DNA of 64,000 nt from Candidatus Parcubacteria bacterium (GTDB lineage Bacteria > Patescibacteriota > Minisyncoccia > UBA6257 > 2-01-FULL-56-20): positions 3,944-67,943 of the forward strand of contig QZIV01000007.1 of assembly GCA_003599135.1 (NCBI GenBank). The letters are read 5' to 3'. This document shows positions 28,477-52,768 of the stretch, in pieces. Each line of letters starts with the position of its first letter. Position 1 is the stretch's first letter. Made by a program: the position numbers and the translations under genes. Under the pieces are notes generated by a model. The model was not told the DNA's origin. It worked only from the letters and a program-made list of their open reading frames with translations, and searched no databases.

Positions 28477-28512
28477 ATTTACAAAGTGTTGAGAGGGGTG
28501 TAAAGTTCTCGC

Positions 28513-30589: not shown

Positions 30590-31067
30590 TCTTGTTGAGT
30601 ATTTGAACGAACTGTTCAACGGAGAGGGGGCGGTGGGTACACCGAAAGACGCACCCCTGGGTTTTGTCGTCAGAAGCTTTTCCAACATTAAGAAAGTGGT
30701 GAAACCCTGGGGTTTTGAACTTTGGCTTTCTGATGCAACCGAGACTCCATACGCTCTGAAAGTCCTTTACGTCAAGAAAGGAACCAAAACCAGTTTGCAA
30801 GTTCATCGGAAGAAAGCTGAACATAATACTGTTTTTTCCGGCAGAGCGAGGTTTTATTACGAAGACAAGAGTAAAGAACTCAAGTCGGTTGACATGGGCC
30901 CGGGTCATGTAGTGATGGTTTTACCTGGTATGGTTCACCGCTTGGAGGCTCTTACCGACCTTGTCCTCTTCGAAGGTTCTACTTCAGAGCTCGACGACGT
31001 GATACGCCTTGCCGATGATTACAAGCGCCCCGACGGAAAGATTGCATCGGAGCATGGTGCGGCATGA
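30582..31067 (+). CDS. Cupin-domain protein (mannose-6-phosphate isomerase type II C-terminal-like / sugar-nucleotide epimerase-like)
   Basis: The KPWGFELWL motif and a cupin core with His (QVHRKK...H) are present. It overlaps the upstream gene by 8 nt. Confidence 0.5.
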   Translation: MVDLVEYLNELFNGEGAVGTPKDAPLGFVVRSFSNIKKVVKPWGFELWLSDATETPYALKVLYVKKGTKTSLQVHRKKAEHNTVFSGRARFYYEDKSKELKSVDMGPGHVVMVLPGMVHRLEALTDLVLFEGSTSELDDVIRLADDYKRPDGKIASEHGAA

Positions 31068-35944: not shown

Positions 35945-35959
35945 GACCTCCTACTTGTT

Positions 35960-37162: not shown

Positions 37163-37167
37163 CAATC

Positions 37168-37941: not shown

Positions 37942-38080
37942 CACACCAATTTTTTTATGGATTTCCATTCGGGCGTCTCTCTTTGATCTAACGACGCACT
38001 TACGGGCGAACAACCGTCAACACCTGGTTACAGCGGGAGACATGCACAAAAAAGTTTTTGACATCGTAGCGCGGTGATTG

Positions 38081-38109
38081 TTGACACTCTTTGTCCTCGG
38101 TCATAGAAT
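38081..38109 (+). promoter_or_regulatory. Strong sigma70-type promoter for rfbB, predicted leaderless
   Basis: TTGACA (38081-38086), an exact 17-nt spacer and TAGAAT (38104-38109). The rfbB ATG at 38117 lies 7 nt downstream of the -10. Confidence 0.5.
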
Positions 38110-38116
38110 ATCCATT

Positions 38117-39172
38117 ATGTCAAAATCAAAAACGATACTCATCACAGGTGGTGCTGGGTTCATCGGCTCGAACACGCTACTGCATCTCTTCGGCAAGTAT
38201 CCGGATTATCGCTACATCATCTTAGATGCCCTCACCTATGCGGGCGACATGCGGAGCATCCCGGCGCATATTCAAAAATCTCCGAATTTCACTTTTGTCC
38301 ACGGGGATGTACGGGACAGCAAGGTGGTAAGTGACTGTGTTTCGCGGGCGGACACGGTAATCCATTTTGCCGCAGAAACGCATGTTGCCCGCTCAATCTC
38401 CGACAACACGAACTTTTTCGAAACCGACGTGATCGGCACCCAGCGAGTGGCGAACGCGGTGTCAAACAATCGAGACAGAATCGACCGGTTCATTCATATT
38501 TCCACAAGTGAAGTGTATGGTACGGCGCGGAGCGAGTTGATAGACGAGAATCACCCCCTAAATCCCCAGAGCCCTTACGCGGCGGCAAAAACAGGCGCCG
38601 ACCGCTTGGTGTACGCGTACCACGCCTGCTACAAAATCCCGGCAGTTATCATCCGTCCATTCAATATGTATGGGCCGCGCCAGCATCCGGAGAAAGCAAT
38701 CCCGCGCTTCATCACGAGCTGTGTCTTAGGAGAACCGTTGACAATTCACGGAACGGGTCAGAGTCAGCGGGATTACACGTACGTTGAAGATTTAGTCCAA
38801 GCGATCGATCTTGTTTTGCATGCCCCAAAAAACGCGGTTATCGGCGAAGTTTTCAACGTCGGAAGCGGCAAAAGTTACGCAGTACGGGATATCGCCAATT
38901 TGATTCTTGAGATGATGCGTGCGGGCAGCCCCCAGAACCCGAGTTTGCCTCCCATGGTGAATACAAGCGACAGGCCCGGCCAGGTGCTCCGGCACGCCGC
39001 GGATGTTAAAAAAATTCAAAACGTTTTAGGCTGGCGACCGACAACGGATTTTGCAGATGGCATGAAGAAAACCATAGAATGGTACAAGGAAAATCAGGAT
39101 TGGTGGAAAGACAAATTGCACATGCGGCACGTTCCCATCGAAGTCGAAAGAGGACGAGTTGAACTGCATTAG
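38117..39172 (+). CDS. rfbB: dTDP-glucose 4,6-dehydratase
   Basis: ILITGGAGFIGSN, DALTYAGD and the YAAAK catalytic motif in ~350 aa. The ATG at 38117 is preferred over the track's upstream start. Confidence 0.85.
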   Translation: MSKSKTILITGGAGFIGSNTLLHLFGKYPDYRYIILDALTYAGDMRSIPAHIQKSPNFTFVHGDVRDSKVVSDCVSRADTVIHFAAETHVARSISDNTNFFETDVIGTQRVANAVSNNRDRIDRFIHISTSEVYGTARSELIDENHPLNPQSPYAAAKTGADRLVYAYHACYKIPAVIIRPFNMYGPRQHPEKAIPRFITSCVLGEPLTIHGTGQSQRDYTYVEDLVQAIDLVLHAPKNAVIGEVFNVGSGKSYAVRDIANLILEMMRAGSPQNPSLPPMVNTSDRPGQVLRHAADVKKIQNVLGWRPTTDFADGMKKTIEWYKENQDWWKDKLHMRHVPIEVERGRVELH

Positions 39173-40064
39173 GTGGATGAATGGAAAGCCTCTTGTGTCT
39201 ATCATCACCCCGGCTTATAACGCCGGGGCTTATCTAGGCGACACCATACGAAGTGTTCTTGCGCAGACGTACTCGAGCTTTGAGCACATCGTTGTTGACG
39301 ACGGCTCGACTGACGACACCGCAAAAGTCGTTCGTGCAATTTCAGATCCTCGTATAAAATATCTCTATCAGAAGAACAGCGGGCAGTCCAGTGCTCGCAA
39401 TGCCGGCATCGCGGCGGCGAAGGGCAAGTATATCGCTTTTCTTGACGCTGACGACCTATTTCTACCAGGGAAGCTTTCTGAGCAGGTGAATTATCTGGAA
39501 ACGAACCCGAACTGCGATTTCTGTTATTGCAAGATATATCATTTTTTCCACGACGAGCCGGATAGGCTTTATTATCTCAAAATGGAACATCCCTCAGGAT
39601 ATCTTTTCGGCAGACTGCTCATGACAAACTTTATCAATCCTCTGAGCGCGGTAGTGCGCAGAGACATTTTCGAAAAACATGGCGCTTTCGAACCTTCGTA
39701 TCGATGGGCCGATGAGCAATATGTATGGCTGAAATTGTCGTATCGAAAGGTGAGATTTTGCTACATAGACAAAGTGCTTGCGTACTATCGGCTTCATCGC
39801 CAAAGTTTCACCAATCGGCCGAGATATTTCCTAGAATCCCAGAAAGAGTGCTTACAAATCCTCAAGGTCGTCAAGACATGGATGAGCGAAGCAGAAGTGG
39901 AAGAATATCAGATAAACAAGCTGGAACGAAAACGAAGAATACGCATAGTGCTTGGGATGTTGATGGCGAGCGGGAACCTATTGACACGGCCTCTACTTGC
40001 CCTGTACCTGCTGAACCGAAGAAGAAAACTAAAATACGTTGGGAACGGAACAAGCACAACATGA
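39159..40064 (+). CDS. Glycosyltransferase family 2
   Basis: Contains VSIITPAYNAGAYL, VVDDGSTDDT and DADD motifs. Confidence 0.8.
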   Translation: MNCIRWMNGKPLVSIITPAYNAGAYLGDTIRSVLAQTYSSFEHIVVDDGSTDDTAKVVRAISDPRIKYLYQKNSGQSSARNAGIAAAKGKYIAFLDADDLFLPGKLSEQVNYLETNPNCDFCYCKIYHFFHDEPDRLYYLKMEHPSGYLFGRLLMTNFINPLSAVVRRDIFEKHGAFEPSYRWADEQYVWLKLSYRKVRFCYIDKVLAYYRLHRQSFTNRPRYFLESQKECLQILKVVKTWMSEAEVEEYQINKLERKRRIRIVLGMLMASGNLLTRPLLALYLLNRRRKLKYVGNGTSTT

Positions 40065-41068
40065 AAGTTCTGTGGCAAATTAACTACGAGACGGGTTTGG
40101 GTGCTGATCGCTGGATTGTGAGCGGTTATAAAGCCGCGTTTGAAGATCTTGGGCACGCGTTTTTCTTCTGGCAGAGCCACGAAGATTTGGACGAGAGACT
40201 TCGCGAGGTCAAGCCGGATATATTGGTGATTTCTCAACGGAGTATCAGGTACAAAGTCCTTCCCGTGTTGAAAACGGCCCGCGCAGACGGTACGAAAGTA
40301 TTCATTTGGGTTGATTCTCTCTTTTACCAGGAACCCGAAGCCGCCGACATTCTCACGCACGACGATCCCGGAGACGTGTACCATGGCGAAACCGAAGAGC
40401 CTTGGATGGAACGATTCCGGAAAGAGACCGGGAAACGGTATACGGTTACGCCAAACGCCGCCAATCATCGTCTCCACTTTCCGACAAAACCAGTAAAGAA
40501 GTATGAATGCGACATCGCATTCCTGGGAGCGAACTTGCCCTCGAAGCAAGAAGCCTTCAAAACACTCCTCTTCCCGCTCGTGAAGAGACATCGCGTGAGG
40601 ATCTACGGACCGGGCTGGACCTTTTCCGATCACGTTCTGCGGTCACTCGCGGGGATATGCCGGAAGGCGGGATGGATGAAGGGAAACGACTGGCTCAGCC
40701 GGAAACGCATCAGCGTCCCGCCGGAAGAGGAAAACCAGCTCTATTCGTCGGCGAAAGTGGCGATCAATTTCCATGAGCGAGGGGAAACACTGAAAACGCA
40801 CGTCATTTTGAACGAACGGACGTTCAAAATACCTGCGTGCGGAGGATTTGAGATTTGCGATTTCGTACCACCGCTCCGGAAATACTTCACGGAAGACGAA
40901 ATGGTTATGGCGGAAGACGACGGAGACTGGTTTGAAAAAATCGATTATTATTTACATCACGAAAACGAGAGAAAGAAAATTCAAGCCGCAGGAACAGCGA
41001 GAGCCAGACGGGACCATACCTATCTGAATCGAGCAGAACAGATGCTCAAATGCCTCAATCTCAAGTAA
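40061..41068 (+). CDS. CgeB-like (DUF3880 / Glyco_trans_1_2) glycosyltransferase-family protein
   Basis: The C-terminal NERTFKIPACGGF...YYLHHENERKKIQAAG..RRDHTY block is characteristic of the CgeB family. The ATG overlaps the GT2 stop (ATGA), and the track's upstream extension crosses GT2 in another frame. Confidence 0.55.
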   Translation: MKVLWQINYETGLGADRWIVSGYKAAFEDLGHAFFFWQSHEDLDERLREVKPDILVISQRSIRYKVLPVLKTARADGTKVFIWVDSLFYQEPEAADILTHDDPGDVYHGETEEPWMERFRKETGKRYTVTPNAANHRLHFPTKPVKKYECDIAFLGANLPSKQEAFKTLLFPLVKRHRVRIYGPGWTFSDHVLRSLAGICRKAGWMKGNDWLSRKRISVPPEEENQLYSSAKVAINFHERGETLKTHVILNERTFKIPACGGFEICDFVPPLRKYFTEDEMVMAEDDGDWFEKIDYYLHHENERKKIQAAGTARARRDHTYLNRAEQMLKCLNLK

Positions 41069-42537
41069 TTCAGCGCGAAAGTCGCACCGAAGTGACGGGT
41101 AATTTTTTCTACCGCGCTGCCTCTTTTTTGTTTTTACTCGCGATCGTATCGCTTGTGTGGCGGAGAAATCACTTCGTGAACTTCGGAGAATACACGCCTA
41201 CGGTAAAATTCACTGAAGTCTCCGCCTTTTTGGCACTCATTGCCGTGGTTCTCGCGTTGATTTTTTCTAAATCTTTGCGCCGGAACGAGGCGCGGAACGC
41301 CCTGCTTGCGTACTGGGGTAAATACTTTCTTCTCTTTTCCGTTTTTCTCGCCGTAGGATCGTTCTGGACTCTTTTGTTTTTGCATCGGGGCCTCGAAAGC
41401 ATCGATGTACTGCAGTACGGGCGGATATTCTTCGGTATGACGTTGTTCTTCCTCGCTCTTTTCCTTGGGTTTGGCAGGCCGTCGTACGCAAGACTCCTCG
41501 TGCTCTCTTTTTTGTCTGCGATCGCACTTCTTCCGGTTCTTTTTCTTTCTGAAGATGTCGTTGTGCGGAACTATCTGATCGTTTCTCCCAGTAGCTACAC
41601 GTTACTCGCGTCGCAACCGGGCACAATCGTTCTTGGATCATTTCTGATTTTCCCGGCTGTAATCCTTTTTTCACTTTTCGTGGCGGGAAAGGGTTTCAAA
41701 AAAGTCGTTTCTTACGTTGGCGCTATGTTACTGATGAGTCTGGTGCTTTGGACCGGCTCTCGCGCCGCTTGGCTGGGGACACTCTTCGGTTGTTTTGTTG
41801 TTGTGGGCGTTTATGCGTATTGGAAAAAGTCCCAAAAGGAAGTGTGGATATATTCGCTCGCCGTGATTCTCATGCTCATTTGCTCGTTCCTTATACTTCC
41901 GCGCCTTGCTCGCAATACTGTCCTCGTGAGGGTTTTCCCTGACTTGAGGGTTGACGTCCAGCTCGATAGAAAAGTTCTGGAAAAAATAGCGGCGTCGCCC
42001 GACGAGCTTACTTTGGATCGTATCGCTTTCCTCTGGCTTCGGTTGCCTACGCGGTACTATTTCACGGCACACCGGCCGAAACCCGAGCTTGGTTTTTACG
42101 ATGGGAGAGGGCAGATTTGGATCGAGCATGCGAAAGAAGCTGCCCTGAATCCGTTAGGCTTGGGACCTGCATATGCTGATGTGCTCTCGAGCGAGAAACC
42201 CGCTGGTTTTTCTGAAACATTAAGCTATGCGAGATCGGCGAACGCGCATAATCTGTGGTTGCAGGTTCTTTTGAGCGCCGGAGTCGGCGGGCTGGCAGTT
42301 TTTCTTTTCATGACGGTTGATATATTGCGGAAACTTTTCGTCCTCGTGAAGTCGAATTATGCCACAATAACCCTATGGCTCGCGGGTGGGGTCGTCGGCA
42401 TTTTGATTAATCTGTTCTTTATCGACGGCCTCGAACTTCGCTGGTTGTGGGTACTTTTTGCTCTGGTTGTCCTCGTGCATGAAAACTTCCTCCGTTTTCG
42501 CGGTCAAGGCGCGCAAGAGAGCATTTCTTCCGTATGA
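41050..42537 (+). CDS. O-antigen ligase/polymerase family (Wzy/WaaL-like) membrane protein
   Basis: Twelve or more TM helices and a LWTGSRAAWLG block resembling the Wzy_C signature. Confidence 0.6.
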   Translation: MPQSQVIQRESRTEVTGNFFYRAASFLFLLAIVSLVWRRNHFVNFGEYTPTVKFTEVSAFLALIAVVLALIFSKSLRRNEARNALLAYWGKYFLLFSVFLAVGSFWTLLFLHRGLESIDVLQYGRIFFGMTLFFLALFLGFGRPSYARLLVLSFLSAIALLPVLFLSEDVVVRNYLIVSPSSYTLLASQPGTIVLGSFLIFPAVILFSLFVAGKGFKKVVSYVGAMLLMSLVLWTGSRAAWLGTLFGCFVVVGVYAYWKKSQKEVWIYSLAVILMLICSFLILPRLARNTVLVRVFPDLRVDVQLDRKVLEKIAASPDELTLDRIAFLWLRLPTRYYFTAHRPKPELGFYDGRGQIWIEHAKEAALNPLGLGPAYADVLSSEKPAGFSETLSYARSANAHNLWLQVLLSAGVGGLAVFLFMTVDILRKLFVLVKSNYATITLWLAGGVVGILINLFFIDGLELRWLWVLFALVVLVHENFLRFRGQGAQESISSV

Positions 42538-43577
42538 AAGTTTTTTACGCCGGATTGCGCTACAACTACTATGACTCGAAACGCGGGGTAAGCTTCGAAC
42601 ATGAAAATTTCTATGAGAGTTTACACGCCTTCCCCGGCGCGGAAGTGAGATACTTTCCTTTCGAGCGGATTCTCGAAGTGGGCAAAACAAGATTTAACGA
42701 GGAGATCCTCGAGGCTGCGAAAAAAGAGAGGCCGGATATCCTTTTCGTATTCACATACTCCGATGAGTTCGACTTTACAATCCTCGACGAAATTCGGAAA
42801 TACACAATAAGTGTTGCGTGGTTCGCCGATGACAGCTGGCGCTTCCACAACTACTCGAAGTTCTTAGCTCCGCATTTCAGCTGGGCGGTGACAACGTACT
42901 CTTGGATGCCGGAACTTTACAGGCGAGCCGGACAAAAAAACGTCGTCAGATCCCAGTGGGCCGCGAGCACGAACATTTACAAACGCGACGAGAAAGATGG
43001 CGGAGAAGAGGTGTTGTTCATAGGCGGCTGGACAAAGGGTCGAGAAAAAATAGTAGAAAAACTAAAAGCGTCGAATATCTCTGTTGCGGTGTACGGTCAA
43101 GGATGGAGCACGAGGCGTGTGAGCAGGGAAGAGATGATCAGGCTTTTTTCTACGAGCAATATCAATTTGGGTCTTAACCCTCCGCCGGGATACTGGGCGA
43201 TAAATTCTCTCGGCCGCCTGTTTTCCCGAGCGTCAATCGACAGAATCGTTCCGGACTTCCACATCGTGCGTAACATCCAATCATGGCTGTCGAGAGGCAT
43301 TCCCCAAATTAAGGCACGCCACTTTGAGATTCCAGCCTGTGGCGGTTTCTTGATGACCGAAATGGCTGACGATCTTGATTCTTTCTACGTGCCTGGCAAA
43401 GAAATCGTGATTTATAAAGGAATGGATGACATGATCAAAAAAATCCGTTATTATCTAACGCACGATGCGGAAAGGAGTGAAATCGCGGAGCGCGGATACA
43501 AACGAACACTCCGTGATCATACCTATGAAAAGCGTTTTCGAGAAATTTTTCGTACCGTCGGTGTCTTGCGAGAGTGA
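42534..43577 (+). CDS. CgeB-like glycosyltransferase-family protein (paralog 2)
   Basis: ARHFEIPACGGF...YYLTHDAERSEIAERGYKRTLRDHTY matches the same C-terminal family block as 40061..41068. It overlaps the upstream gene by 4 nt. Confidence 0.55.
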   Translation: MKVFYAGLRYNYYDSKRGVSFEHENFYESLHAFPGAEVRYFPFERILEVGKTRFNEEILEAAKKERPDILFVFTYSDEFDFTILDEIRKYTISVAWFADDSWRFHNYSKFLAPHFSWAVTTYSWMPELYRRAGQKNVVRSQWAASTNIYKRDEKDGGEEVLFIGGWTKGREKIVEKLKASNISVAVYGQGWSTRRVSREEMIRLFSTSNINLGLNPPPGYWAINSLGRLFSRASIDRIVPDFHIVRNIQSWLSRGIPQIKARHFEIPACGGFLMTEMADDLDSFYVPGKEIVIYKGMDDMIKKIRYYLTHDAERSEIAERGYKRTLRDHTYEKRFREIFRTVGVLRE

Positions 43578-43609: not shown

Positions 43610-44716
43610 GTGGACAGAATACTCATCACCGGCGGAGCCGGCTTCATCGGGAGCCACACCGCGGACGCGCTCGCTACAAGGGGATACCGCATCCGTATTT
43701 TGGATAACCTTGCACCTCCGGTACACACTGGAAAATGGCCCAAATACGTTTTGGGCAAAGGATACGAACTTCTGAGGGGTGATGTGAGGAAAAAGGGATC
43801 TTGGAGGCGGGCGTTGCGAGGAGTTTCGTTCGTGTATCACCTTGCGGCGTACCAGGATCAGCGACTGGATTTCAGCACGTTTTTCGAGACGAATACGGTA
43901 AGTACAGCAATACTTTACGAGCTTATCGTCGGCGAAAGATTGCCGGTGCGGAAAGTAATTTTGGCAAGCTCCCAGTTTGTCTACGGCGATGGGGAGTATC
44001 GATGTGCTCACTCGCGAGGCACAACATTCTATCCGGAATTGAGGTCGCTCGGGCAGTTGAAAAACAAACAATGGAATATTCTTTGTCCTCACGGGAAAAA
44101 AGCAAGAAACATTCCGTTCCGAGAAGATCAGCGGGTTCTGCCTACAAACTCTTACGGTCTATCAAAGTTTGCCCTCGAGAATGCCGGTTTGAGACTCGGT
44201 AAGACGTACAACATACCCACCGTTGCCTTGCGATACTCGATCGTTCAGGGTCCCCGTCAATCCCCTCGAAATCTTTATTCGGGAGCACTGCGGATTTTCG
44301 TGAGCCAGGCTGTGGCCGGAGTTCCGATTACTGTTTACGAAGATGGGCACGCGACGCGCGATTTTGTGAACATCGACGATGTTGTCAAAGCGAATTTGGC
44401 TGTCCTCAAAAACTCGAAAGCCGACTTTCAAATCTTTAATGTCGGAGGAGGCAGAGCATACGATGTGCTCGATTTTGCGAGAGAGGTAAAAGAAATTACA
44501 GGATCCCCTTCTGAAATTATTGTAGGAGGATTCCGTCGAACGGATACTCGCCACGCGGTTTCAGATATTTCGAAATTAAAAAAACTCGGTTGGAGGCCGC
44601 GCTTTGATACGGAGCGATCGATTAAAACCTACGCGAAGTGGTTTCTCAAAGAGGGATTCGAAAAAACCTTAGATCGAAAAAACCTGCTCGGTCTAAGAAA
44701 AGGGATTCCTCGGTAA
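43610..44716 (+). CDS. NAD-dependent epimerase/dehydratase family protein with a Cys/His-containing insertion
   Basis: ILITGGAGFIGSH and YxxxK (YGLSK). A ~40-aa insert (YRCAHSRG...NILCPHGKK) is absent from canonical extended SDRs. A GTG start is inferred. Confidence 0.6.
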   Translation: MDRILITGGAGFIGSHTADALATRGYRIRILDNLAPPVHTGKWPKYVLGKGYELLRGDVRKKGSWRRALRGVSFVYHLAAYQDQRLDFSTFFETNTVSTAILYELIVGERLPVRKVILASSQFVYGDGEYRCAHSRGTTFYPELRSLGQLKNKQWNILCPHGKKARNIPFREDQRVLPTNSYGLSKFALENAGLRLGKTYNIPTVALRYSIVQGPRQSPRNLYSGALRIFVSQAVAGVPITVYEDGHATRDFVNIDDVVKANLAVLKNSKADFQIFNVGGGRAYDVLDFAREVKEITGSPSEIIVGGFRRTDTRHAVSDISKLKKLGWRPRFDTERSIKTYAKWFLKEGFEKTLDRKNLLGLRKGIPR

Positions 44717-44756
44717 TTTTGTTGACAATACCCTTCGCTCGTTTTACGCTTCTTGC

Positions 44757-45779
44757 ATGATCGTTGTCCGCGCACCAATGCGCATCAGTTTCGTGGGAGG
44801 CGGCACCGACCTCCCCGATTTTTACCGTCGTTCTCCGGGACGGGTGATTTCCACCGCGATCGACAAGTTTGTCTACGTAGTCATCAATCGGACCCCGCTC
44901 TTGGATCAAGTTTCTGCGCGGTACTCCGTGTCGGAAACCGTTCCCCACGCGAAAGATTTGAAACATACGCGAATCAAAGCGGCGCTTCTCGATCTTGGAA
45001 TCGAAAAGGGTATCGAGATCGCGTCATTCGCAACGCTCCCTTCGAAAACGGGCCTCGGATCTTCTTCGAGTTTTTCCGTAGCCCTCATGAAGGGGCTACA
45101 CGCGTACCTGGGGCGGAAACTCGACAAAGGAGAGACAGCGGAGGCCGCGAGCCGCCTTGAAATAGAGCTCGTCGGAGAGCCGATAGGCAAACAGGATCAA
45201 TACGCCGCCTCGTTCGGAGGATTGAACGTAATCCAGTTCAACTCGGATGAGTCAGTCGATGTCGATCCGGTGCTTATGGATTACAAGCTGCGCCTCGCCC
45301 TCGAAAACCATCTCCTTGTATTCTTTACCGGCGTGACCCGCGCGGCTTCGAGCGTTCTTACCGAGCAGAAATCGAATATAGATAAGAAATTCGACACGCT
45401 CCGCGAGATGGCGGACACGGTAGAGGAGTTTAGGGATCGCCTGCTCCGGGGCGACTTTAAGGGGCTTGGGGAGGTACTCCATAAAGCCTGGCTCAAGAAA
45501 AAAACACTCGCCTCGAACGTTTCGAATCCGGTGATTGATGAACTCTATGAAACGGGGATAAGTCACGGTGCGTGGGGCGGTAAGATTTTAGGGGCGGGAA
45601 GCGGCGGTTGTATAATGTTCCTTGTACCTCCGGAGAAACACGCCGAAATTAGGAAAACAATTCAAGCCGTCGCAAAGAAGCACAACCTGACAGATTTTCG
45701 GGAAATCCCGATTAAGTTTGTACAATCCGGCGCCGAAGTTCTTTTCAATGGCGACCATTTTCATAGGCTAAGCATGTAA
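44757..45779 (+). CDS. hddA: D-glycero-alpha-D-manno-heptose 7-phosphate kinase (GHMP kinase)
   Basis: PMRISFVGGGTDLPDFY and PSKTGLGSSSSFSVAL (GHMP motif 2). The adjacent gmhA, gmhB and hddC genes support the assignment. Confidence 0.7.
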   Translation: MIVVRAPMRISFVGGGTDLPDFYRRSPGRVISTAIDKFVYVVINRTPLLDQVSARYSVSETVPHAKDLKHTRIKAALLDLGIEKGIEIASFATLPSKTGLGSSSSFSVALMKGLHAYLGRKLDKGETAEAASRLEIELVGEPIGKQDQYAASFGGLNVIQFNSDESVDVDPVLMDYKLRLALENHLLVFFTGVTRAASSVLTEQKSNIDKKFDTLREMADTVEEFRDRLLRGDFKGLGEVLHKAWLKKKTLASNVSNPVIDELYETGISHGAWGGKILGAGSGGCIMFLVPPEKHAEIRKTIQAVAKKHNLTDFREIPIKFVQSGAEVLFNGDHFHRLSM

Positions 45780-45785
45780 AAAAGA

Positions 45786-46394
45786 ATGGAAGAGTTCATC
45801 AAAAGTTTTGCCGATAAAGTGAGAGCGTCTCTCGAAAATCTCCCCTCGAAGGAGATTGCAAAAGCCCTAAACATTCTTCAAGCCGTCTATGAGCGCGACG
45901 GAAGGATCTACGTTTTCGGGAATGGCGGGTCGCTCGCAATTGCAACCCACTGGGTGAGTGATTTCAATAAAACTGTTTTCAGCCACCACCTCGACAAACC
46001 CGCGCGCCGGTTTCAGGCAATCCGACTTCCGACGACCGAGGCGGAACTCACTGCATGGGCAAACGATGTCGGATTCGATATGGTCTTTGTCGGCCCACTC
46101 AAGAATTATCTTCAGGACTCCGATGTCGTTGTTGGAATCTCAAGTTCCGGCAACTCTCCGAATGTTGTGAAAGCAGTTGAGTTTGCGAAAGAGCACAAAG
46201 TCCCCGTGATCGGCCTCTCGGGATTCGACGGAGGGAAACTGAACGATCTTGCGGACGCAAAGATCCTTGTCCCCACCCCGAAAGACGAGTACGAACTTGT
46301 AGAAGTGGTTCACACGGCCATTTTTCACCTTATGACGGTATATTTTAAGGATTATTTCGATCATCTCGTTGAGCGCGAAGCGGCTCAAAAATAG
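45786..46394 (+). CDS. gmhA: Sedoheptulose-7-phosphate isomerase (SIS domain)
   Basis: IYVFGNGGSLAIATH in a ~200-aa SIS fold. Confidence 0.75.
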   Translation: MEEFIKSFADKVRASLENLPSKEIAKALNILQAVYERDGRIYVFGNGGSLAIATHWVSDFNKTVFSHHLDKPARRFQAIRLPTTEAELTAWANDVGFDMVFVGPLKNYLQDSDVVVGISSSGNSPNVVKAVEFAKEHKVPVIGLSGFDGGKLNDLADAKILVPTPKDEYELVEVVHTAIFHLMTVYFKDYFDHLVEREAAQK

Positions 46395-46397
46395 CGC

Positions 46398-46961
46398 ATG
46401 AGGAGAGCGGTGTTTTTGGATCGGGATGGAGTCATCAACCGCGAGGTTGATGTCCTCCGGAGCGTAAAACAACTCCGCCTTCTTCCGAGGGTCGCCGAAG
46501 CGATCCAGAGACTGAACGAAGCCGGCTTTCTCGTCGTTATCGTAACCAATCAGCCCGTTGTTGCCCGAGGATGGCTTACCGAAAAAGAGGTTGATGGGAT
46601 CCACGAGATTCTCCTCCGAAGGCTCCAGGGGAAGGGCGCGAGAGTCGATGCTGTCTACTATTGTCCGCATCACCCGAACGCAAATCTCAAACGGTACCGC
46701 AGGAAGTGCAGCTGCCGGAAGCCGAATCCCGGACTTTTTATAAAGGCGGCAAAGAAGTTCAAGATAGGCCTTAAGAAAAGTTTCTCCGTGGGTGATATGA
46801 TGTGGGATATTTTGGCGGGAAAGCGTGCGGGGACCACGACTATTCTTGTGGAAACCGGGTATGGAGGAAAAGATAAGAAGCTCGCAATCGAAGTGAGTCC
46901 GGACTATACTGCGAAAAACCTCTACGAAGCGGTTCGAATCATTAAGCGCTATGCAAAATAA
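46398..46961 (+). CDS. gmhB: D,D-heptose 1,7-bisphosphate phosphatase (HAD, HisB-like)
   Basis: AVFLDRDGVIN, VVIVTNQP and YYCPHHP (Zn-binding motif of GmhB). Confidence 0.8.
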   Translation: MRRAVFLDRDGVINREVDVLRSVKQLRLLPRVAEAIQRLNEAGFLVVIVTNQPVVARGWLTEKEVDGIHEILLRRLQGKGARVDAVYYCPHHPNANLKRYRRKCSCRKPNPGLFIKAAKKFKIGLKKSFSVGDMMWDILAGKRAGTTTILVETGYGGKDKKLAIEVSPDYTAKNLYEAVRIIKRYAK

Positions 46962-47688
46962 AATTACTCAAGCAGTGCTTCTCTCTGCGGGCCTTGGCAC
47001 GCGCTTGAGGCCTCTCACCGACACGGTTCCCAAAGTGATGGTGCCTTTGGCCGGAAAGCCCCTCCTTCTGCACCACATGGATCAGCTGAAGCGCTTCGGC
47101 GTGAACGAGTTTTTCATAAATTTGTTCTACTTACCCGATGTTATCACAAGCTACTTCGGTGACGGATCAAAGTTCGGGTTTAAGGTCCACTACTTCCTTG
47201 AAAAACCTGAGATTTTAGGAACCGCTGGCGGAGTCAAGAACTTTGAGGAACTCCTGGGCGACAACTTCCTCGTTCTTTACGGGGATACGTTCTATGAAAT
47301 TGATTATGGACGACTCTTCGAGTTTTATTTGTCTCACCCCGACGCATTTGGGATGGGAACGGCTCGGAAGACCGATCATCCGTGGGATTCCGATCTCGGT
47401 GTTTTGGGCGACGACGGAAAAGTTCTGAAGTTTCTTATTAAGCCGCACAAGGAGCTCCCCGAGAACTACTGGGGGATGTCCGCGCCGTATGTGTTCGAAA
47501 AGAAAGTACTGGAGTATGTTCCGGCTGGGGCGTATTACGAAATTGCCCACAACCTCGTGCCGGATCTTCTGGCTCGTGGGTACCATTACTACGCGTATAC
47601 GCTCCGAGAGGGCGAATTCCGAAAAGACATTGGCACGATAGAGCGATACAGGGAAGTTGAAGAATATTTAGAACGGAAACGGGGCTGA
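46951..47688 (+). CDS. hddC: D-glycero-alpha-D-manno-heptose 1-phosphate guanylyltransferase
   Basis: LSAGLGTRLRPLT...PK.MVPLAGKP (NTP-transferase) in ~245 aa. It overlaps gmhB by 11 nt. Confidence 0.65.
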   Translation: MQNKITQAVLLSAGLGTRLRPLTDTVPKVMVPLAGKPLLLHHMDQLKRFGVNEFFINLFYLPDVITSYFGDGSKFGFKVHYFLEKPEILGTAGGVKNFEELLGDNFLVLYGDTFYEIDYGRLFEFYLSHPDAFGMGTARKTDHPWDSDLGVLGDDGKVLKFLIKPHKELPENYWGMSAPYVFEKKVLEYVPAGAYYEIAHNLVPDLLARGYHYYAYTLREGEFRKDIGTIERYREVEEYLERKRG

Positions 47689-47691: not shown

Positions 47692-48414
47692 TTATGCGTG
47701 AGCCCCGTGTTGATTGTTGAGGTTTTGGATCAGTGCGCGAATATTGATTTCGCGCCAATCAGTGAAAACTCTTTTTGCACCCGCCTGGAGGAGAGGAACG
47801 ACGGTTTCATACCGATTGAGAACTGGTATGCCGATCGCCCTTGATCCGGCCCTGATGGCTGCGGTGACGCCGCGCGGAGAGTCCTCGAAGACTAGCTGAT
47901 GTTCTGGTGGAATGTCCATTCGCCGTGCCGTTTCCAAGAATACATCCGGCGCTGGTTTTACTTCCTTCACGGCTTCCCGGAGTACGATGGTGCCGCGTTG
48001 GAAGTGGTTGATCAAACCGGATTGCTCAAGAAGAAACATAGCTTCTTCCGTCCGAGTGAGCGACCCGATCGCAAAGGGGAGACAGAGTATCCGTAGTTCG
48101 GTGAGAACATCGAGAAGACCTGGACGAGGCTCGATCTTGGTGGTGTTGAGAATTAACTTGTAGTGAAATTTGTCTCGTTCGAGGAATTGGCGGCAGAACT
48201 CTTCTTCCGGTACGAGTTTGTCGCTCAAGGCCCAGATGTCCCGAGCCACTGCTTCGTCGGGTCCACCGATGAAGTGCAGAACGCTCGTGAGCGCGGATTC
48301 GATTGTGAGCGACACGCCGAGTTCCTTTGCTGACAAGATATGCCCTTCGAAATGAGCCCGCTCCACATCGACGACTGGCCCCTCGAGATCAAAAGCGACA
48401 CCGAGGATCTTCAA
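47692..48414 (-). CDS. HAD-IA family hydrolase (beta-phosphoglucomutase / sugar-phosphatase-like)
   Basis: An N-terminal FDLEG (DxD-type nucleophile motif) and a C-terminal FEDSPRGVTAAIRAG. Confidence 0.65.
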   Translation of the reverse strand: MKILGVAFDLEGPVVDVERAHFEGHILSAKELGVSLTIESALTSVLHFIGGPDEAVARDIWALSDKLVPEEEFCRQFLERDKFHYKLILNTTKIEPRPGLLDVLTELRILCLPFAIGSLTRTEEAMFLLEQSGLINHFQRGTIVLREAVKEVKPAPDVFLETARRMDIPPEHQLVFEDSPRGVTAAIRAGSRAIGIPVLNRYETVVPLLQAGAKRVFTDWREINIRALIQNLNNQHGAHA

Positions 48415-48846: not shown

Positions 48847-49036
48847 TTCATGCCTCCAGAGTGAGACTTTGATGCCGTTTTAACTGTATAATCTTTTAAC
48901 TTTTTTGTCAATAAGTAGAAACGAAAACGCCGCAGGTGTAAAACTTTTTTCCTGCGGCGTGCTGTGACGCTCACGATACGGTAATGAATTCGGAGTGATT
49001 TGTCAAACGAAACCGCTGTCTGCTATTTTTATACCC

Positions 49037-49867
49037 ATGACCGGAAAACCGAAAGTTTCTGTTCTTCTTGCGACTTGGAATCGCGCCGGGATGATTTCGC
49101 GCACGATTGAGAGCGTGCGGAATCAGGCGTTCAAGGATTGGGAGCTCGTGATTACGGACGACGGCTCGACCGATGATACGCCGAGTGTTGCGAGGGATTG
49201 GCAGAAAAAAGAGCCGAGGATCGTCTACGTACGAAGTGAGGTAAACCAGGGTATCTCGAAAAACTACAACCAAGGATTCCGCGCGGCGAAGGGGGAGTAT
49301 GTTGCGATGATTGACGACGACGATCCGTGGATTACCCCGGAGAAGCTTGCGAAACAAGTCAGATTTCTCGACGAGCACCCCGACTACGTCGGTTGCGGCG
49401 GAGGGGTAATCGTTGTCGATGACAAAGGAAAAAACATGTACCGATATTTCAAACCCGAAACCGATCGAGAAATCAGAAAGTACATGCTTTTTTCAAACCC
49501 GATGGCGAACTCGACGACGATGTTCCGCTTCGACGTCGCGAAAAAAATCGGTCTCTACGACGAGTCAAACCGCTACGCCGGCGACCGTGATTTTTGGATG
49601 AAGATGGGACTCGAGGGGAAGCTCTATAACTTCCAAGAATATTTCTCCCATTACACGATGGGAGACCAGAACACCTCGATCCTCCGCATGCGCCCGCATC
49701 TCAAGTCATCGCTCACCTTTATGAAGCGTTATCGAGACAAGTATCCGTATTATCCTCTGGCGCTCGTCTTCAACACCGTGCAGTACTGGTACTCGTTTCT
49801 TCCCTTGGCGGTGAAACGCCCTATCCACGCACTGTTGGCTCGCTTGAAACGTCTCGTCGTAAAATAA
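49037..49867 (+). CDS. Glycosyltransferase family 2
   Basis: VSVLLATWNRAGMI, ITDDGSTDDT and DDDD motifs. The ATG at 49037 is preferred over the track's GTG at 48995. Confidence 0.75.
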   Translation: MTGKPKVSVLLATWNRAGMISRTIESVRNQAFKDWELVITDDGSTDDTPSVARDWQKKEPRIVYVRSEVNQGISKNYNQGFRAAKGEYVAMIDDDDPWITPEKLAKQVRFLDEHPDYVGCGGGVIVVDDKGKNMYRYFKPETDREIRKYMLFSNPMANSTTMFRFDVAKKIGLYDESNRYAGDRDFWMKMGLEGKLYNFQEYFSHYTMGDQNTSILRMRPHLKSSLTFMKRYRDKYPYYPLALVFNTVQYWYSFLPLAVKRPIHALLARLKRLVVK

Positions 49868-51323
49868 GGAACAGTTCGCGAAGCAGGGGATCCCGAAGTT
49901 TGAGGAGTAACGAGAGATATGCGATAGCTGCAATCGCCACGATTGCTACGAAGTGCAGGTGAAGCGCGGCGAAAAGTGCCGTGAGGATTCCCACGCCGAG
50001 AGTCGCGAACACCGCGATTTTAAGGTGAGGGAGTACCTCGAATTGGATCAAGCTTCGCGCGGTATGCCATAGATACACGTTGCTTACGAACTGGGCGATA
50101 AGTGTAGCAACGGAGGACCCCGCGATGCCGAAGCGGGGGATGAGGAGAAAGTCCAGGAGAACATTCAGTCCGCCACCGATCGCGGCATACACGATAAGGT
50201 TCTTCTGGCGGTCGTAGGCCACAAGAGCGGAGCTTAATATCACGGCAGGAAAATCAATGAGGATGGTAAGAAGAAGTACTTGGAACGCAATCGTCCCCGG
50301 TGAGAAACTCTCGCCGAAAAGGCCTGCCATAATCGGTTGTCCCAGAATAATTCCCCCGACTGCGGCAGGTAACGCGATTATGAATACGAGACTCACAACT
50401 CGCTCAAGCGCTTCGCGCATTTTGATAGGATCTTTCACGGCGAGGCGCGCGAATGCGGGCAAGGCGCTTGCCGCAACGATACTTGGGATGATGTAGAGAA
50501 GCTGAATGATGCGGTTCGCAGCGGAATAAATACCGACATCCGTTGCGGATTTGAGCCAGCCGATGACGAGTATGTCGGTGTTGATCATAAACATTCCAAG
50601 AAGGCTCGAGATAGCGAACGGCCAACAGGCGCCGAGTATCGGTTTGATGAGGGATGGGTTGAAGTAGGTAAAGACTTTTTTAAAACTGTCGCGGAGAGCG
50701 TAGAACGTTGCCATCATTCCAATTCCGGTTCCTATCGCATACGCGTATGAGAACGACTCTACGGTCCGAGAAAATTGGAGGAACGCAAGGCCGAACGCGA
50801 CAATCCCGAGGTTCGTGAGGAAATACAGGCCCGCCTCCCGCTCCATCTTCTCTGTTGCCTGGATAATTGAGAATCCGAACTGACGAAGTGTGTCGAAGAC
50901 GAGAATGGCGGCAACAATCGGAAAGATCGTTTTTGCCGCAGAGAGCGTGGTAAATCGGGGGACTATAAAGAGCACGATTGCAACCCCGATGACTAGAAGA
51001 CCTAGTTTTAGGAAAAACGAGGTCGAAGTGATTTCAAGGCGCCGCTGTTTTTCGGGAGTTCGCGCTGCTTCCCGGATGAGAATTGCGTTGATGCCGAAGT
51101 CGATAAAGAGCGTGAGTACCGCCACGATGGTTATCGCGTACGAAAATATTCCCCACTGTTCGGCGCCGAGCACTCTTGCGGCATAGATAATAACAATGGC
51201 GCGAAGGAGCCTTCCCCCGACGTTTGAGACCGTGAGCCAAAACGTGTTTTTCGCAACCGTCTGTCGAGTCGTCCGGTTTGTGAGAAGAAATTCCTTTATT
51301 TTCTTAAACATTCGTTTTATCAT
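49821..51323 (-). CDS. wzx: Wzx-type oligosaccharide flippase (MOP/PST superfamily)
   Basis: About 12-14 TM helices and an N-terminal TNRTTRQTVAKNTFWL...IARVLGAEQWG region typical of PST flippases. The start was chosen at Met-100 of the track ORF (MIKRMFKK). Confidence 0.7.
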   Translation of the reverse strand: MIKRMFKKIKEFLLTNRTTRQTVAKNTFWLTVSNVGGRLLRAIVIIYAARVLGAEQWGIFSYAITIVAVLTLFIDFGINAILIREAARTPEKQRRLEITSTSFFLKLGLLVIGVAIVLFIVPRFTTLSAAKTIFPIVAAILVFDTLRQFGFSIIQATEKMEREAGLYFLTNLGIVAFGLAFLQFSRTVESFSYAYAIGTGIGMMATFYALRDSFKKVFTYFNPSLIKPILGACWPFAISSLLGMFMINTDILVIGWLKSATDVGIYSAANRIIQLLYIIPSIVAASALPAFARLAVKDPIKMREALERVVSLVFIIALPAAVGGIILGQPIMAGLFGESFSPGTIAFQVLLLTILIDFPAVILSSALVAYDRQKNLIVYAAIGGGLNVLLDFLLIPRFGIAGSSVATLIAQFVSNVYLWHTARSLIQFEVLPHLKIAVFATLGVGILTALFAALHLHFVAIVAIAAIAYLSLLLKLRDPLLRELFLILRRDVSSEPTVRG

Positions 51324-51365
51324 ATCAGTACCTCGTACGATGTGTAAAATGTTCGCTATCACAGC

Positions 51366-51863
51366 ATGAGAACAAAAAGGGATTTCAAAAAGAAAAGGAA
51401 AAAAGTTGTTGTCGCGGTAAGCGGCGGGTTCGATCCTATTCACGTGGGGCATGTGCGCCTCTTTGAGGCAGCGAAGCGTCTCGGAGACATTCTCGTTGTG
51501 ATTTTGAATAACGACAACTGGCTTAGGAAGAAAAAGAGTCACGTTTTTATGCCGCAAGAAGAGCGGAAGGAGATCATCGAGGGCCTTCGGGCAGTTGACG
51601 GGGTAGTCCTCACGGCTCACCGGCCCAATCCGGCCGATATGAGCGTTTGCCGCGAGCTTCGGAAAATCAAACCGGACGTTTTTGCGCAGGGGGGCGATCG
51701 GAACACGGCTAACATCCCGCCCTGCGAGGTTGAGCTCCAGAGAGATCTCGGATTCCGGATAGTTGAGAACGTCGGCCGAGGAGGAAAGGTTCAGTCAAGC
51801 TCCTGGCTTCTCAGAAAGTATTCCGAGACCGTTTCGAAACGGCGTTCGTCCGGGAAGGCCTAA
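51366..51863 (+). CDS. Cytidylyltransferase-like nucleotidyltransferase (TagD / HldE domain II-like)
   Basis: VSGGFDPIHVGHVRLFEAAKRLGD, an HxGH-type motif of the cytidylyltransferase superfamily, in 165 aa. Confidence 0.55.
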   Translation: MRTKRDFKKKRKKVVVAVSGGFDPIHVGHVRLFEAAKRLGDILVVILNNDNWLRKKKSHVFMPQEERKEIIEGLRAVDGVVLTAHRPNPADMSVCRELRKIKPDVFAQGGDRNTANIPPCEVELQRDLGFRIVENVGRGGKVQSSSWLLRKYSETVSKRRSSGKA

Positions 51864-51865: not shown

Positions 51866-52768
51866 TTACCGGGTTATCGCCTCGAGAATTCCTTTACTGA
51901 GACTGACTTTTGGGATCCAACCTAAAGCTTTTCGAGCTCGATTGGCATCAAGCGTTATGTGTTCGACTTCTCCCTCTCGTCGTGGAGCGTAAACGGGAGA
52001 TTGCTTGAACCCTAGGTTTTTTGCGACTTCTTCAAATACCTCCTGATCGCTCGTGTTTTTTCCCGAACCGATGTTATAAATTTCTCTGTTGCCTTTTGAG
52101 AGAGCCTTGAGAGTTGCGCGTGCGACGTCACTTACGTGCACATAATCTCGCGTTTTACTTCCATCCCCGAAAATGGTCGGGCGTTTCTCTCTCCGCATAA
52201 GGCTGGCGAACACCGACACGACCCCCGCTTTCTGCCTCGATCCATATACGTTTGCGTAGCGAAGGATCGTATAGTCGAGCTTATCGACTGTTCCGTGAAA
52301 TCGTACGGCTTCTTCTCCCATGAGTTTTGAAAGGGCGTAAGGGGAAAGCGGGTTGGGAGCAGCATTTTCTTTTACGGGTAGGAGTTTTGGATTCCCGTAA
52401 ATGGAGCCACCGCTCGAGGCGAAGATAATTTTTTTCCGTTTTTCTTTGGACTCTCTGAACGCCACGAGGACGTTTATAGTTCCCAGAACGTTGACGTTGA
52501 ACGTGGGGATCGGATTTCGCATGGATTCGGCTACGTGAACGAGCGCCGCATAATGGCTTACAACGCGGGGACGTTCTTTCTTAAAAATCTTTTTGATGGC
52601 CGTAAGACTTCGGACATCCGCCCGGTAAAACTTCGCTCGAGGATCGAGATTTTTGCGGGAGCCCGTGGAGAGATTGTCGACGACAACAACGCGGTGACCT
52701 GCTCGGAGATAGGCGTCGACAACATGGGAACCGATGAATCCTGCTCCCCCTGTTACTAAAATTTTCAC
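51866..52768 (-). CDS. NAD-dependent epimerase (UDP-hexose 4-epimerase-like)
   Basis: ILVTGGAGFIGSH, YxxxK (YALSK) and ~300 aa (short GalE/WcaG-like). Confidence 0.7.
   Translation of the reverse strand: MKILVTGGAGFIGSHVVDAYLRAGHRVVVVDNLSTGSRKNLDPRAKFYRADVRSLTAIKKIFKKERPRVVSHYAALVHVAESMRNPIPTFNVNVLGTINVLVAFRESKEKRKKIIFASSGGSIYGNPKLLPVKENAAPNPLSPYALSKLMGEEAVRFHGTVDKLDYTILRYANVYGSRQKAGVVSVFASLMRREKRPTIFGDGSKTRDYVHVSDVARATLKALSKGNREIYNIGSGKNTSDQEVFEEVAKNLGFKQSPVYAPRREGEVEHITLDANRARKALGWIPKVSLSKGILEAITR

Follow-up and report, generated by a model that had tools for sequence, protein, structure and literature searches.

A putative heptose-activating operon headed by a WbiB/Tle-family SDR in a patescibacterial surface-glycan locus

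On balance, we favor the interpretation that five tightly packed genes on the + strand (43610-47688) form one operon-like module within a Wzx/Wzy-type locus of ~33 kb for a surface glycan, in a Liptonbacteria-like genome of the Patescibacteria, that this operon makes an NDP-heptose, and that its first product, an extended SDR, is a C4-epimerase feeding the glycan. If true, a seven-carbon activated sugar would be made for the surface glycan of a Patescibacteria bacterium. Positions refer to the window, the whole 64-kb stretch of DNA analyzed.

30582-31067: cupin, in the glycan locus
34658-35944: sugar C-methyltransferase, in the glycan locus
38078-39172: RmlB-like gene (331 bits; cut-off 365)
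39159..40064, +: GT2 glycosyltransferase (Pfam; tblastn homologues in related loci)
42534..43577, +: Glyco_trans_1_2-family glycosyltransferase directly upstream of the SDR (Pfam; recurs in related loci)
43610..44716, +: extended SDR assigned to the insert-bearing WbiB/Tle family of NDP-sugar 4-epimerases, heptose-linked subclade (368 aa, GTG start)
43994..44104, +: SDR insert, approximately residues 129-165, EYRCAHSRGTTFYPELRSLGQLKNKQWNILCPHGKKAR (from the gap against GalE-type structures, conservation, and the predicted model)
44757..45779, +: HddA-like GHMP kinase (340 aa, RISFVGGGTDL; NCBIfam and PDB matches)
45786..46394, +: GmhA-like SIS-domain sedoheptulose-7-phosphate isomerase (202 aa, GNGGS; NCBIfam and PDB matches)
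46398..46961, +: GmhB-like HAD-IIIA heptose 1,7-bisphosphate 7-phosphatase (187 aa, DRDGV, YYCPHHP...CSCRKP)
46951..47688, +: sugar-1-phosphate nucleotidyltransferase in the HddC slot (245 aa; ManC/MurU/HddC-like lineage)
48995..49867, +: second GT2 glycosyltransferase, downstream of the module in a recurrent neighborhood (Pfam; homologues in related loci)
49821..51620, -: Wzx-type flippase (Polysacc_synt) that recurs beside the module (Pfam; long ORF, true start probably internal)

The gaps between successive genes, from the SDR to the nucleotidyltransferase (NTase), are 40, 6, 3, and -11 nt, and 32 nt separate the SDR from the upstream glycosyltransferase. The first-pass annotation had described four consecutive packed genes downstream of the SDR, and all five open reading frames are indeed present on the + strand. 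The locus also holds a Bac_transf priming transferase, Wzx, a Wzy_C-like protein, many glycosyltransferases, and at least six SDRs besides that of the operon.

A GHMP-type kinase marks the α-anomer route of heptose activation, for which GmhA, GmhB, a GHMP kinase, and an NTase are the defining set. The kinase, isomerase, and phosphatase match characterized HddA/WcbL, GmhA, and GmhB enzymes best, respectively. HddA is the top NCBIfam match of the GHMP kinase (157 bits, cut-off 600), and in the PDB this protein groups with heptose-7-P kinases (WcbL 4usm at 3e-44, also 3k85 and 4n3o), its best structural relatives being WcbL and the C. jejuni and Bacteroides heptose kinases; galacto- and fucokinases score 3e-21 (fucokinase) and weaker. 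These matches make it most likely a D-glycero-D-manno-heptose 7-phosphate 1-kinase yielding the α-1,7-bisphosphate. The SIS protein scores ~101 bits with the NCBIfam GmhA models (cut-offs 209-276), and its best 13 PDB matches are all phosphoheptose isomerases, with DiaA weaker. The HAD protein reaches 164 bits with PRK08942 (cut-off 178) and 132 bits with the HisB-N domain (cut-off 84). E. coli GmhB (3l8e/2gmw) is its top match at 3e-31, with YYCPHHP...C-x-C-RKP aligned and the GmhB zinc loop (C-x-H...C-x-C) retained. All four proteins, the NTase included, fall below the NCBIfam equivalog cut-offs, and their assignments are best matches rather than passes of a curated threshold.

The initial proposal of a complete GDP-heptose pathway (hddA-gmhA-gmhB-hddC) stood for these three enzymes and failed for the NTase. 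HddC orthology was ruled out, as the HddC model covers the N-terminal half of the NTase alone, at 76 bits against a cut-off of 300. A mannose-1-P guanylyltransferase model (118 bits) and MurU match the NTase best, placing it by sequence in the ManC/MurU/HddC group; it groups with neither RmlA nor GalU. Because the NTase falls in this group and is not an HddC orthologue, GDP is a tentative designation, and since its best PDB match is by name a UDP-glucose pyrophosphorylase and the HddC match is confined to the N-terminal half, the nucleotide could differ from GDP. The NTase is syntenic in all modules compared, and in one locus (L098) it is fused to GmhB, which ties it to the heptose pathway. 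The operon resembles known α-heptose clusters in its four enzyme classes, location in a glycan locus, GHMP-type kinase, and GmhB zinc loop, but differs in the divergence of all four proteins, the ManC/MurU-like lineage of the NTase, and its Patescibacteria/CPR host. A further difference is the SDR fixed at the operon head, which is of another family than the Campylobacter tailoring enzymes.

The SDR contains GGAGFIGS and the catalytic residues S120/S121, Y182, and K186, and by sequence belongs to the NAD(P)-dependent NDP-sugar C4-epimerases of the WbiB/Tle family, although seemingly retuned to heptose. Members of this family include Burkholderia thailandensis WbiB (UniProt Q2SYH7) and Mycobacterium abscessus MAB_4111c, and Tle has been shown by experiment to be a 4-epimerase (PMC11549994). 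Alignment with a Tle orthologue that matched 8/8 published Tle residue positions gave 34% identity (E 3e-54), colinear through the insert. The S/Y/K triad (S121/Y181/K185 in Tle, S121/Y182/K186 here), R249/R250, and a ~37-residue extra element in the same place are shared. In contrast, the wall motif RLQNVYG of Tle, normally RxxN[VI]YG in the family, reads RYSIVQG here, with Ile replacing the essential Asn210, and the SDR has heptose genes as its genomic partners where Tle has a GPL or rhamnose locus. The best Foldseek matches (including 4zrm, 6wjb, and 8rdh) are all C4-epimerases of the GalE type, whose fold and catalytic machinery the SDR shares at 24-32% identity. TM is ~0.9 relative to these targets and ~0.75 relative to the query, the targets being ~310 aa long and lacking the insert. 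The GDP-sugar 4-epimerase subgroup represented by PhGal4E_1 (8rdg/8rdh) shows that the GalE fold can accept GDP-sugars (PMC12171764). Of the two activities suggested earlier for the SDR, epimerization is supported and 4,6-dehydration is unlikely, as S-S-Q-F follows the catalytic Ser and the Asp/Glu general acid-base pair (TDE/TSE) is missing.

GalE-type epimerases of ~310 aa cover the SDR in two segments, query 2-128 and 164-325, and ~36 residues between these have no counterpart. The ~40-aa insert noted in the first-pass annotation is therefore real, at ~36-37 residues, but the description "Cys/His-rich" overstates its two Cys and two His (C132, H134, C159, and H161). A frameshift artefact is contradicted by the insert being in frame and kept in >100 homologues of 64-74% identity. 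It was said to be foreign to standard GalE/RmlB-like enzymes, which holds for solved structures (absent from all top 50 Foldseek hits) but not for the WbiB/Tle epimerases, of which it is a hallmark. By alignment it is homologous to the "extended element 128-165" of the dTDP-L-rhamnose 4-epimerase Tle/WbiB, and is thus the family's own, already known extra element. The predicted structure (pLDDT ~78-83; strands 130-131 and 139-140, helix 147-151) suggests a β-hairpin, a short helix, and a β segment carrying the four Cys/His residues as putative metal ligands. Each of the four is kept by at least 90% of 20 sampled sequences, and C-x-H...C-x-H occurs in 92/114 close homologues. Family-wide the signature is C-x2-[CH]...C-x2-C with C-P-x-C as second knuckle, of the two-knuckle zinc-ribbon type, and the two knuckles are correlated in presence and lost together. 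In most family members the insert has the look of a structural zinc ribbon with four ligands. This pattern and the co-loss make a zinc ribbon plausible, but the C-x-H...C-x-H variant of our SDR is atypical; the Tle insert contains neither Cys nor His. The ligands vary within the heptose-linked clade, and one member (L095) has none.

The first-pass annotation placed the SDR to act on the product of the heptose genes, and this linkage recurs across lineages. SDRs at least 50% identical to that of the operon adjoin heptose genes in 12/12 informative loci (the window, L001, L003, L005, L086-L089, L092, L095, L096, and L098), whereas none of about 27 loci with distant insert-bearing SDRs has heptose genes within 7 kb. 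Module gene order is kept in independent Patescibacteria contigs with differing flanks, and the adjacency persists despite rearrangements; in the L090/L093 lineage, a GT2 instead of HddA directly follows the SDR, after which the contig ends. The linked SDRs all read RY[SA]IV[QH]G, with Ile for the Asn210 essential in Tle, while unlinked SDRs retain this Asn. The linkage and the Asn-to-Ile signature appear to be new.

The KEGG-style label that JGI applies across the SDR family is dTDP-L-rhamnose 4-epimerase, which would imply that the SDR makes dTDP-6-deoxy-L-talose and has no biochemical tie to the heptose genes, both sugars entering the same glycan. We consider this unlikely. Membership of the insert-bearing family of characterized WbiB/Tle, the RmlB-like gene, and the reported widespread dTDP-L-rhamnose synthesis in CPR (PMC9166423) would fit, and rmlB/C/D-like genes at a distance of 3-5 kb from the SDR make a rhamnose role conceivable in L003. 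However, the SDR is only 34% identical to Tle and its clade has lost Asn210, RmlC, which would help to supply dTDP-L-rhamnose, is absent from the entire 64-kb window and within 8 kb in L001 and L005, and the constant partner of the clade, never found with distant members, is the heptose module. Equally doubtful is an HldD analogue, an NDP-heptose C6 epimerase converting D-glycero- to L-glycero-manno-heptose on an α-linked nucleotide sugar. L-glycero-D-manno-heptose is the usual heptose in bacterial glycans, H. pylori HldD (3sxp) matches at 9e-16, and among NCBIfam models the ADP-glyceromanno-heptose 6-epimerase reaches 94 bits, a little less than GalE with 114 bits. Nevertheless, neither model comes anywhere near its cut-off (274.6 and 262.3), the insert is missing from HldD-type enzymes, and the closest characterized and structural relatives of the SDR are all C4-epimerases.

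Slightly less probable again is a Cj1427-like C4-dehydrogenase releasing NDP-4-keto-heptose for tailoring by other SDRs, the cupin, and the C-methyltransferase. These enzymes would require keto-sugar substrates, and heptose diversification in C. jejuni begins with such an oxidation at C4 (PMC10680097). Yet the top 60 PDB sequence matches of the SDR do not include Cj1427, this SDR is the only one kept with the module from locus to locus, unaccompanied by any partner reductase or epimerase, and characterized family members are complete epimerases. The C. jejuni GDP-heptose tailoring enzymes (Cj1427, 4,6-dehydratase, C3/C5 epimerases, and C4 reductases) share the predicted substrate but have no close sequence relationship to the SDR; there, inversion of centers proceeds by release of a 4-keto intermediate and the action of separate reductases, and no single-enzyme C4-epimerase is listed. 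At 34% identity, Tle is not a confident guide to whether the SDR attacks C4, attacks C6, or only oxidizes. It is very improbable that the four downstream genes make another activated sugar, for example by a hexose-1-P kinase and NTase beside an unrelated SIS protein and phosphatase. The sub-threshold scores would allow it, but three independent proteins match heptose-specific enzymes best by wide margins, the α-heptose set is complete in its four classes, and the NTase-GmhB fusion argues against it.

In the favored NDP-heptose pathway, GmhA would convert sedoheptulose-7-P to D-glycero-D-manno-heptose-7-P, the HddA-like kinase would phosphorylate C1 to give the α-1,7-bisphosphate, and GmhB would remove the 7-phosphate. 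With S120/S121, Y182, and K186 as catalytic residues, the SDR would then invert C4 of the NDP-heptose by transient oxidation to a 4-keto sugar that rotates and is reduced again, and the resulting talo-configured NDP-heptose would pass to neighboring glycosyltransferases. The GT2 at 39159..40064 is a candidate transferase for this product: tblastn found homologues beside the SDR in L005, L086, L087, L088, L089, L093, and L095, immediately upstream of it in most related loci. The glycosyltransferase at 42534..43577 has homologues of 45-60% identity in L003, L005, L086, L087, L088, and L090, and the downstream GT2 at 48995..49867 has homologues of 59-67% identity in L003, L005, L086, L093, and L095. 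Homologues of the Wzx-type flippase occur in L003, L005, L086, and L095.

The five ORFs of the module lie at the positions and on the strand that the first-pass annotation had given, and the motifs it had named (RISFVGGGTDL, GNGGS, DRDGV and YYCPHHP) were all found in them:

43610-44716, plus strand, extended SDR (368 aa)
44757-45779, plus strand, HddA-like GHMP kinase
45786-46394, plus strand, GmhA-like SIS protein
46398-46961, plus strand, GmhB-like HAD-IIIA phosphatase
46951-47688, plus strand, sugar-1-phosphate nucleotidyltransferase (NTase)

The gaps between these genes are 40, 6, 3 and -11 nt, and the upstream glycosyltransferase is 32 nt away. Promoter and terminator consensus scans at the module gave no excess over shuffled expectation.

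The kinase matches Pfam GHMP_kinases_N and GHMP_kinases_C, and HddA is its top NCBIfam model (157 bits, equivalog cut-off 600). Among PDB entries, WcbL (4usm, 3e-44), 3k85 and 4n3o (1e-38 to 3e-44) are well ahead of fucokinase (3e-21) and galactokinase. Both searches place the kinase among the heptose-7-phosphate kinases, as had been proposed, and not among the fuco- and galactokinases, whose matches are far weaker. Judged by its sequence, the enzyme is assigned to the HddA type of the GHMP family and not to the PfkB-type HldE/HldA; use of a GHMP kinase marks the alpha-anomer heptose route (HddA as opposed to HldE). For the SIS protein, 13 of the 13 top PDB matches are phosphoheptose isomerases (4e-24 to 5e-16), and GmhA models score best in NCBIfam, yet under their cut-offs; its identification as GmhA is borne out by the best matches in both databases. 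For the HAD protein, E. coli GmhB scores 3e-31, and the alignment covers both the DxDG motif and the C-x-H...C-x-C zinc loop, in agreement with its earlier assignment; HisB is much weaker. In NCBIfam it reaches 164 bits against PRK08942 (cut-off 178) and passes the HisB-N domain model. Since their scores fall under the NCBIfam equivalog cut-offs, the three proteins are divergent members of their families.

The NTase had been taken for HddC, an assignment that did not hold. It scores 76 bits against the HddC equivalog (cut-off 300), over its N-terminal half only. The NCBIfam models for ManC-like mannose-1-phosphate guanylyltransferase (118 bits) and MurU (107 bits) score higher and, with a PDB entry named UDP-glucose pyrophosphorylase, are the best full-length matches. 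The HddC structures 5xhw and 6jq8 align to residues 7-128 only, and 8x7s and 7whr are among the best PDB relatives. RmlA and GalU, the other groupings considered at the outset, are weaker still, and the NTase groups with neither. On these comparisons and by synteny, the NTase takes the place of HddC without being its orthologue. The NTases of rearranged modules in other genomes have the same ambiguous NCBIfam profile. At one such locus, L098, a single 395-aa ORF (3119-4306) consists of an NTase (residues 6-216) fused to GmhB (235-381), and the gene order is NTase-GmhB, HddA, GmhA, SDR, with the SDR last instead of first. This fusion ties the NTase lineage to the heptose pathway. The NTase would use GTP and release a GDP-sugar, by analogy to characterised alpha-route systems and with a guanylyltransferase as the best NCBIfam match. 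Of the GDP-heptose pathway originally proposed, the sugar is thus supported by homology of the kinase, GmhA and GmhB, and the GDP part is suggested by analogy.

In a 20-sequence homologue alignment (A1), the GGAGFIGS motif, S120/S121, Y182 and K186 of the SDR are invariant, and the sequence at the catalytic Ser is A-S-S-Q-F-V-Y-G, with Q122 nearly invariant. Against GalE-type C4-epimerases of ~310 aa the protein aligns in two blocks, 2-128 and 164-325, separated by an insert of ~37 residues. A confident AlphaFold2 model has a mean pLDDT of 88.5 (~78-83 in the insert). Foldseek comparison of this model with the PDB returned only C4-epimerases and their relatives, with TM-scores of ~0.9 (target) and ~0.75 (query), and no solved structure bearing the insert was among these matches. 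When 1.84 billion cluster representatives were searched exhaustively, 1027 relatives emerged at E<1e-30, the best 150 of which align through the insert, down to ~33% identity.

The insert is modelled as a short hairpin, a helix at 147-151 and further beta segments. Its reading frame is intact, and over 100 homologues at 64-74% identity, belonging to Liptonbacteria, Ryanbacteria, Magasanikbacteria and further Patescibacteria, conserve it; a frameshift artefact was rejected on these grounds. For each of C132, H134, C159 and H161, conservation in alignment A1 is 90% or more. The wider family carries the signature C-x2-[H/C] ... R ... W-[D/E] ... C-P-x-C-G, in which C-x2-[H/C] forms knuckle 1 and C-x2-C knuckle 2. 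The knuckles co-occur (both present, 79; neither, 31; mixed, 18; Fisher 1e-14, uncorrected for phylogeny), and such co-retention and co-loss is the pattern expected of one four-ligand structural metal site. The clade of the window's SDR has an atypical C-x-H ... C-x-H arrangement in 92 of 114 close homologues, and the ligands have been lost at L095, a locus of this clade. Ligand loss in some members argues that any metal bound in the clade is structural and not catalytic. The insert is plausibly a zinc ribbon.

Many insert-bearing family members carry the JGI label 'dTDP-L-rhamnose 4-epimerase', and distant representatives have only this label or generic names. The characterised enzyme of that name, Tle (M. 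abscessus MAB_4111c), has 353 aa, is 54% identical to Burkholderia WbiB, uses the triad S121/Y181/K185 and is inactive as the Y181A, S121A, N210A or R249A mutant (PMC11549994). By its published residue numbering Tle was not recovered among the 150 representatives. A genome scan with a generic N-terminal pattern, from which the lower 50 loci (ordinary short SDRs) were left out, identified L030:7001-8062 of Mycobacterium sp. 4858, which encodes 353 aa and matches 8/8 published Tle positions. BLASTP aligns the window's SDR with this Tle orthologue at 34% identity (E 3e-54), colinear through the Tle 128-165 element between Ser strand and Tyr helix, with one 3-residue gap. This identity, colinear through the insert, makes the SDR a member of the WbiB/Tle family by descent. 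The Cys/His insert of the first-pass annotation is real and conserved; its supposed novelty has to be given up, since it matches the Tle 128-165 element and is a known hallmark of the WbiB/Tle family. In contrast to the ligand-bearing insert of the window's SDR, that of Tle has no Cys/His, and this loss of ligands would account for a Tle paper without any mention of zinc or cysteines (PMC11549994).

One rival reading takes the SDR to be a dTDP-L-rhamnose 4-epimerase, as labelled, and Tle R249 is indeed kept as R250. Against this, the essential Asn210 of Tle is replaced by Ile211, so that the two enzymes are probably not isofunctional, and RmlC is absent from the whole 64-kb window, which disfavours activity on dTDP-L-rhamnose. 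Judged from its residues and gene neighbours, the window's SDR is probably not a dTDP-L-rhamnose 4-epimerase by function.

Of the two reactions first suggested for the SDR, epimerisation is supported by family and folds, and 4,6-dehydration was rejected on the active site, where the S-S-Q-F motif lacks the Asp/Glu pair (T-D-E or T/S-x-E). Against the NCBIfam dTDP-glucose dehydratase model the SDR scores 102 bits (cut-off 365). Two further rivals would make it an HldD-like C6 epimerase or a Cj1427-like 4-dehydrogenase. The heptose enzymes of C. jejuni comprise a C4-dehydrogenase, a 4,6-dehydratase, C3/C5 epimerases, a C3-dehydratase, C4-reductases and mutases, with no single-enzyme C4-epimerase, and the talo isomer is unseen in the 6-deoxy series (PMC10680097). 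Some GalE-type 4-epimerases accept GDP-sugars (PMC12171764).

Heptose genes adjoin the SDR in the window and, among loci whose SDR shares 50% identity or more with it, at L001/2, L003/4, L005, L086-L089, L092, L095, L096 and L098, and the linkage is kept despite reordering, inserted genes and the L098 fusion. Not one of the four heptose genes lies within 7 kb of a distant insert-bearing SDR (32-40% identity) at any of ~27 loci, drawn from Actinomycetota, Alphaproteobacteria, Acidobacteriota, Bacteroidota and others. When motif was compared with context for the SDRs of 25 loci, every heptose-adjacent SDR read R-Y-[S/A]-I-V-[Q/H]-G and every unlinked one R-x-x-N-[V/I]-Y-G; RYSIVQG occurs in 100 of 114 close homologues. 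The SDR of L025 (46% identity) also shows the Ile form of the motif; the sole heptose-type gene near it is GmhA-like and 6 kb distant. What is new is a subclade of the WbiB/Tle family, linked to heptose genes and with Ile in place of the Asn, which databases at present mis-label.

We propose that GmhA would convert sedoheptulose-7-phosphate to D-glycero-D-manno-heptose-7-phosphate, from which the HddA-like kinase would form the alpha-1,7-bisphosphate and GmhB the alpha-1-phosphate; homology for these three steps is strong. Synteny and the fusion suggest the sugar specificity of the NTase step, and analogy its nucleotide. The SDR would then generate the C4 epimer (talo), passing transiently through a 4-keto form with NAD(P) tightly bound, as family membership, clade-specific linkage and an altered substrate wall suggest, and glycosyltransferases, Wzx and Wzy would carry the sugar into a surface glycan. 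The joint reading, in which the SDR yields NDP-D-glycero-D-talo-heptose as a conserved surface-glycan building block of Paceibacteria/CPR and the insert is, family-wide, a structural zinc ribbon, is tentative, and we consider it somewhat more likely to fail than to hold in full. If true, NDP-D-glycero-D-talo-heptose would be a nucleotide sugar outside the characterised Campylobacter repertoire.

CPR/Patescibacteria are uncultivated and mostly host-attached, and to our knowledge almost nothing has been established about their cell-surface chemistry. Heptose genes are not new in these organisms, the four-gene heptose pathway is textbook chemistry, and no major concept is altered by the present findings. 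The module is conserved, readily recognised and predicts a specific unusual heptose in a CPR surface glycan, a target for glycan analysis, antibody or lectin probes and enzymology. A systematic annotation error is also corrected, namely the rhamnose epimerase label, given to the whole insert-bearing family, on a clade that lacks the essential residue and has another genomic partner, and a plausible structural zinc ribbon is flagged in a family of sugar-nucleotide SDRs.

A glycan locus of ~33 kb encloses the module. It also holds a Wzx flippase, many GT2, GT4 and Glyco_trans_1_2 transferases, a sugar C-methyltransferase, at least six further SDRs and the following:

41050-42537, Wzy_C/O-antigen-ligase-like membrane protein
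52765-54102, minus strand, Bac_transf priming transferase

In most related loci (L005, L086-L089, L093 and L095) a homologue of the GT2 at 39159-40064 abuts the SDR on its upstream side. In the window three genes stand between the two: a Glyco_trans_1_2 glycosyltransferase, the Wzy_C-like gene and another Glyco_trans_1_2 glycosyltransferase. ORF 39725-41068 overlaps this GT2 by ~340 nt, and its true start is therefore probably near 40100. The Glyco_trans_1_2 protein next to the SDR, a second GT2 (48995-49867) and Wzx recur in related loci too; we infer that the recurrent glycosyltransferases may use the module's product and that Wzx may export it. At L090 and L093 (SDR 71% identical) the SDR is followed by a homologue of the second GT2, not by the kinase, and the contigs end before any heptose genes would come into view, so that this lineage counts neither for nor against the linkage.

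Convergent with the module is a beta-phosphoglucomutase-family HAD-IA hydrolase (47692-48414, minus strand), whose homologues (51-53% identity) follow the NTase in the same way at L086 and L089, which makes it a possible additional conserved partner of the module. A 165-aa cytidylyltransferase-like protein (51366-51863, plus strand) has RfaE/HldE domain II, a heptose-1-phosphate adenylyltransferase, as its best NCBIfam match (75 bits, cut-off 181). Because the gene runs into the 5' end of the long Wzx ORF (49821-51620, minus strand), an internal codon is the probable start of the flippase; in L003 a homologue (59% identity) likewise adjoins Wzx. No beta-route heptose pathway (PfkB heptokinase, GT9) was found in the 64 kb of the window. 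At L005 the contig with the module also carries, 6-8 kb upstream of it (1-2303), another SIS gene together with genes for a PfkB-family kinase and for a GT9 heptosyltransferase, and by sequence this is a beta-route-like heptose set beside an alpha-route module in one Patescibacteria genome.

A second sugar-tailoring block (31943-39172, plus strand) contains four SDR/RmlD-like genes and a GT4, with no RmlA or RmlC nearby, and includes:

34658-35944, plus strand, sugar C-methyltransferase with a Zn-binding N-domain
38078-39172, plus strand, RmlB-like 4,6-dehydratase (331 bits, cut-off 365)

The content of this block points to a sugar of the branched or deoxy type as part of the same glycan. Further upstream, the run at 24153-31067 (plus strand) encodes a bacterial-PGI-like SIS protein, a Zn-dependent alcohol dehydrogenase, two weak NTP_transferase proteins, a glycerophosphodiester phosphodiesterase, a GatZ/KbaZ-like aldolase, a cupin and a 287-aa ORF (28513-29376) with no Pfam match. 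This run may represent a polyol- or ketose-phosphate activation pathway.
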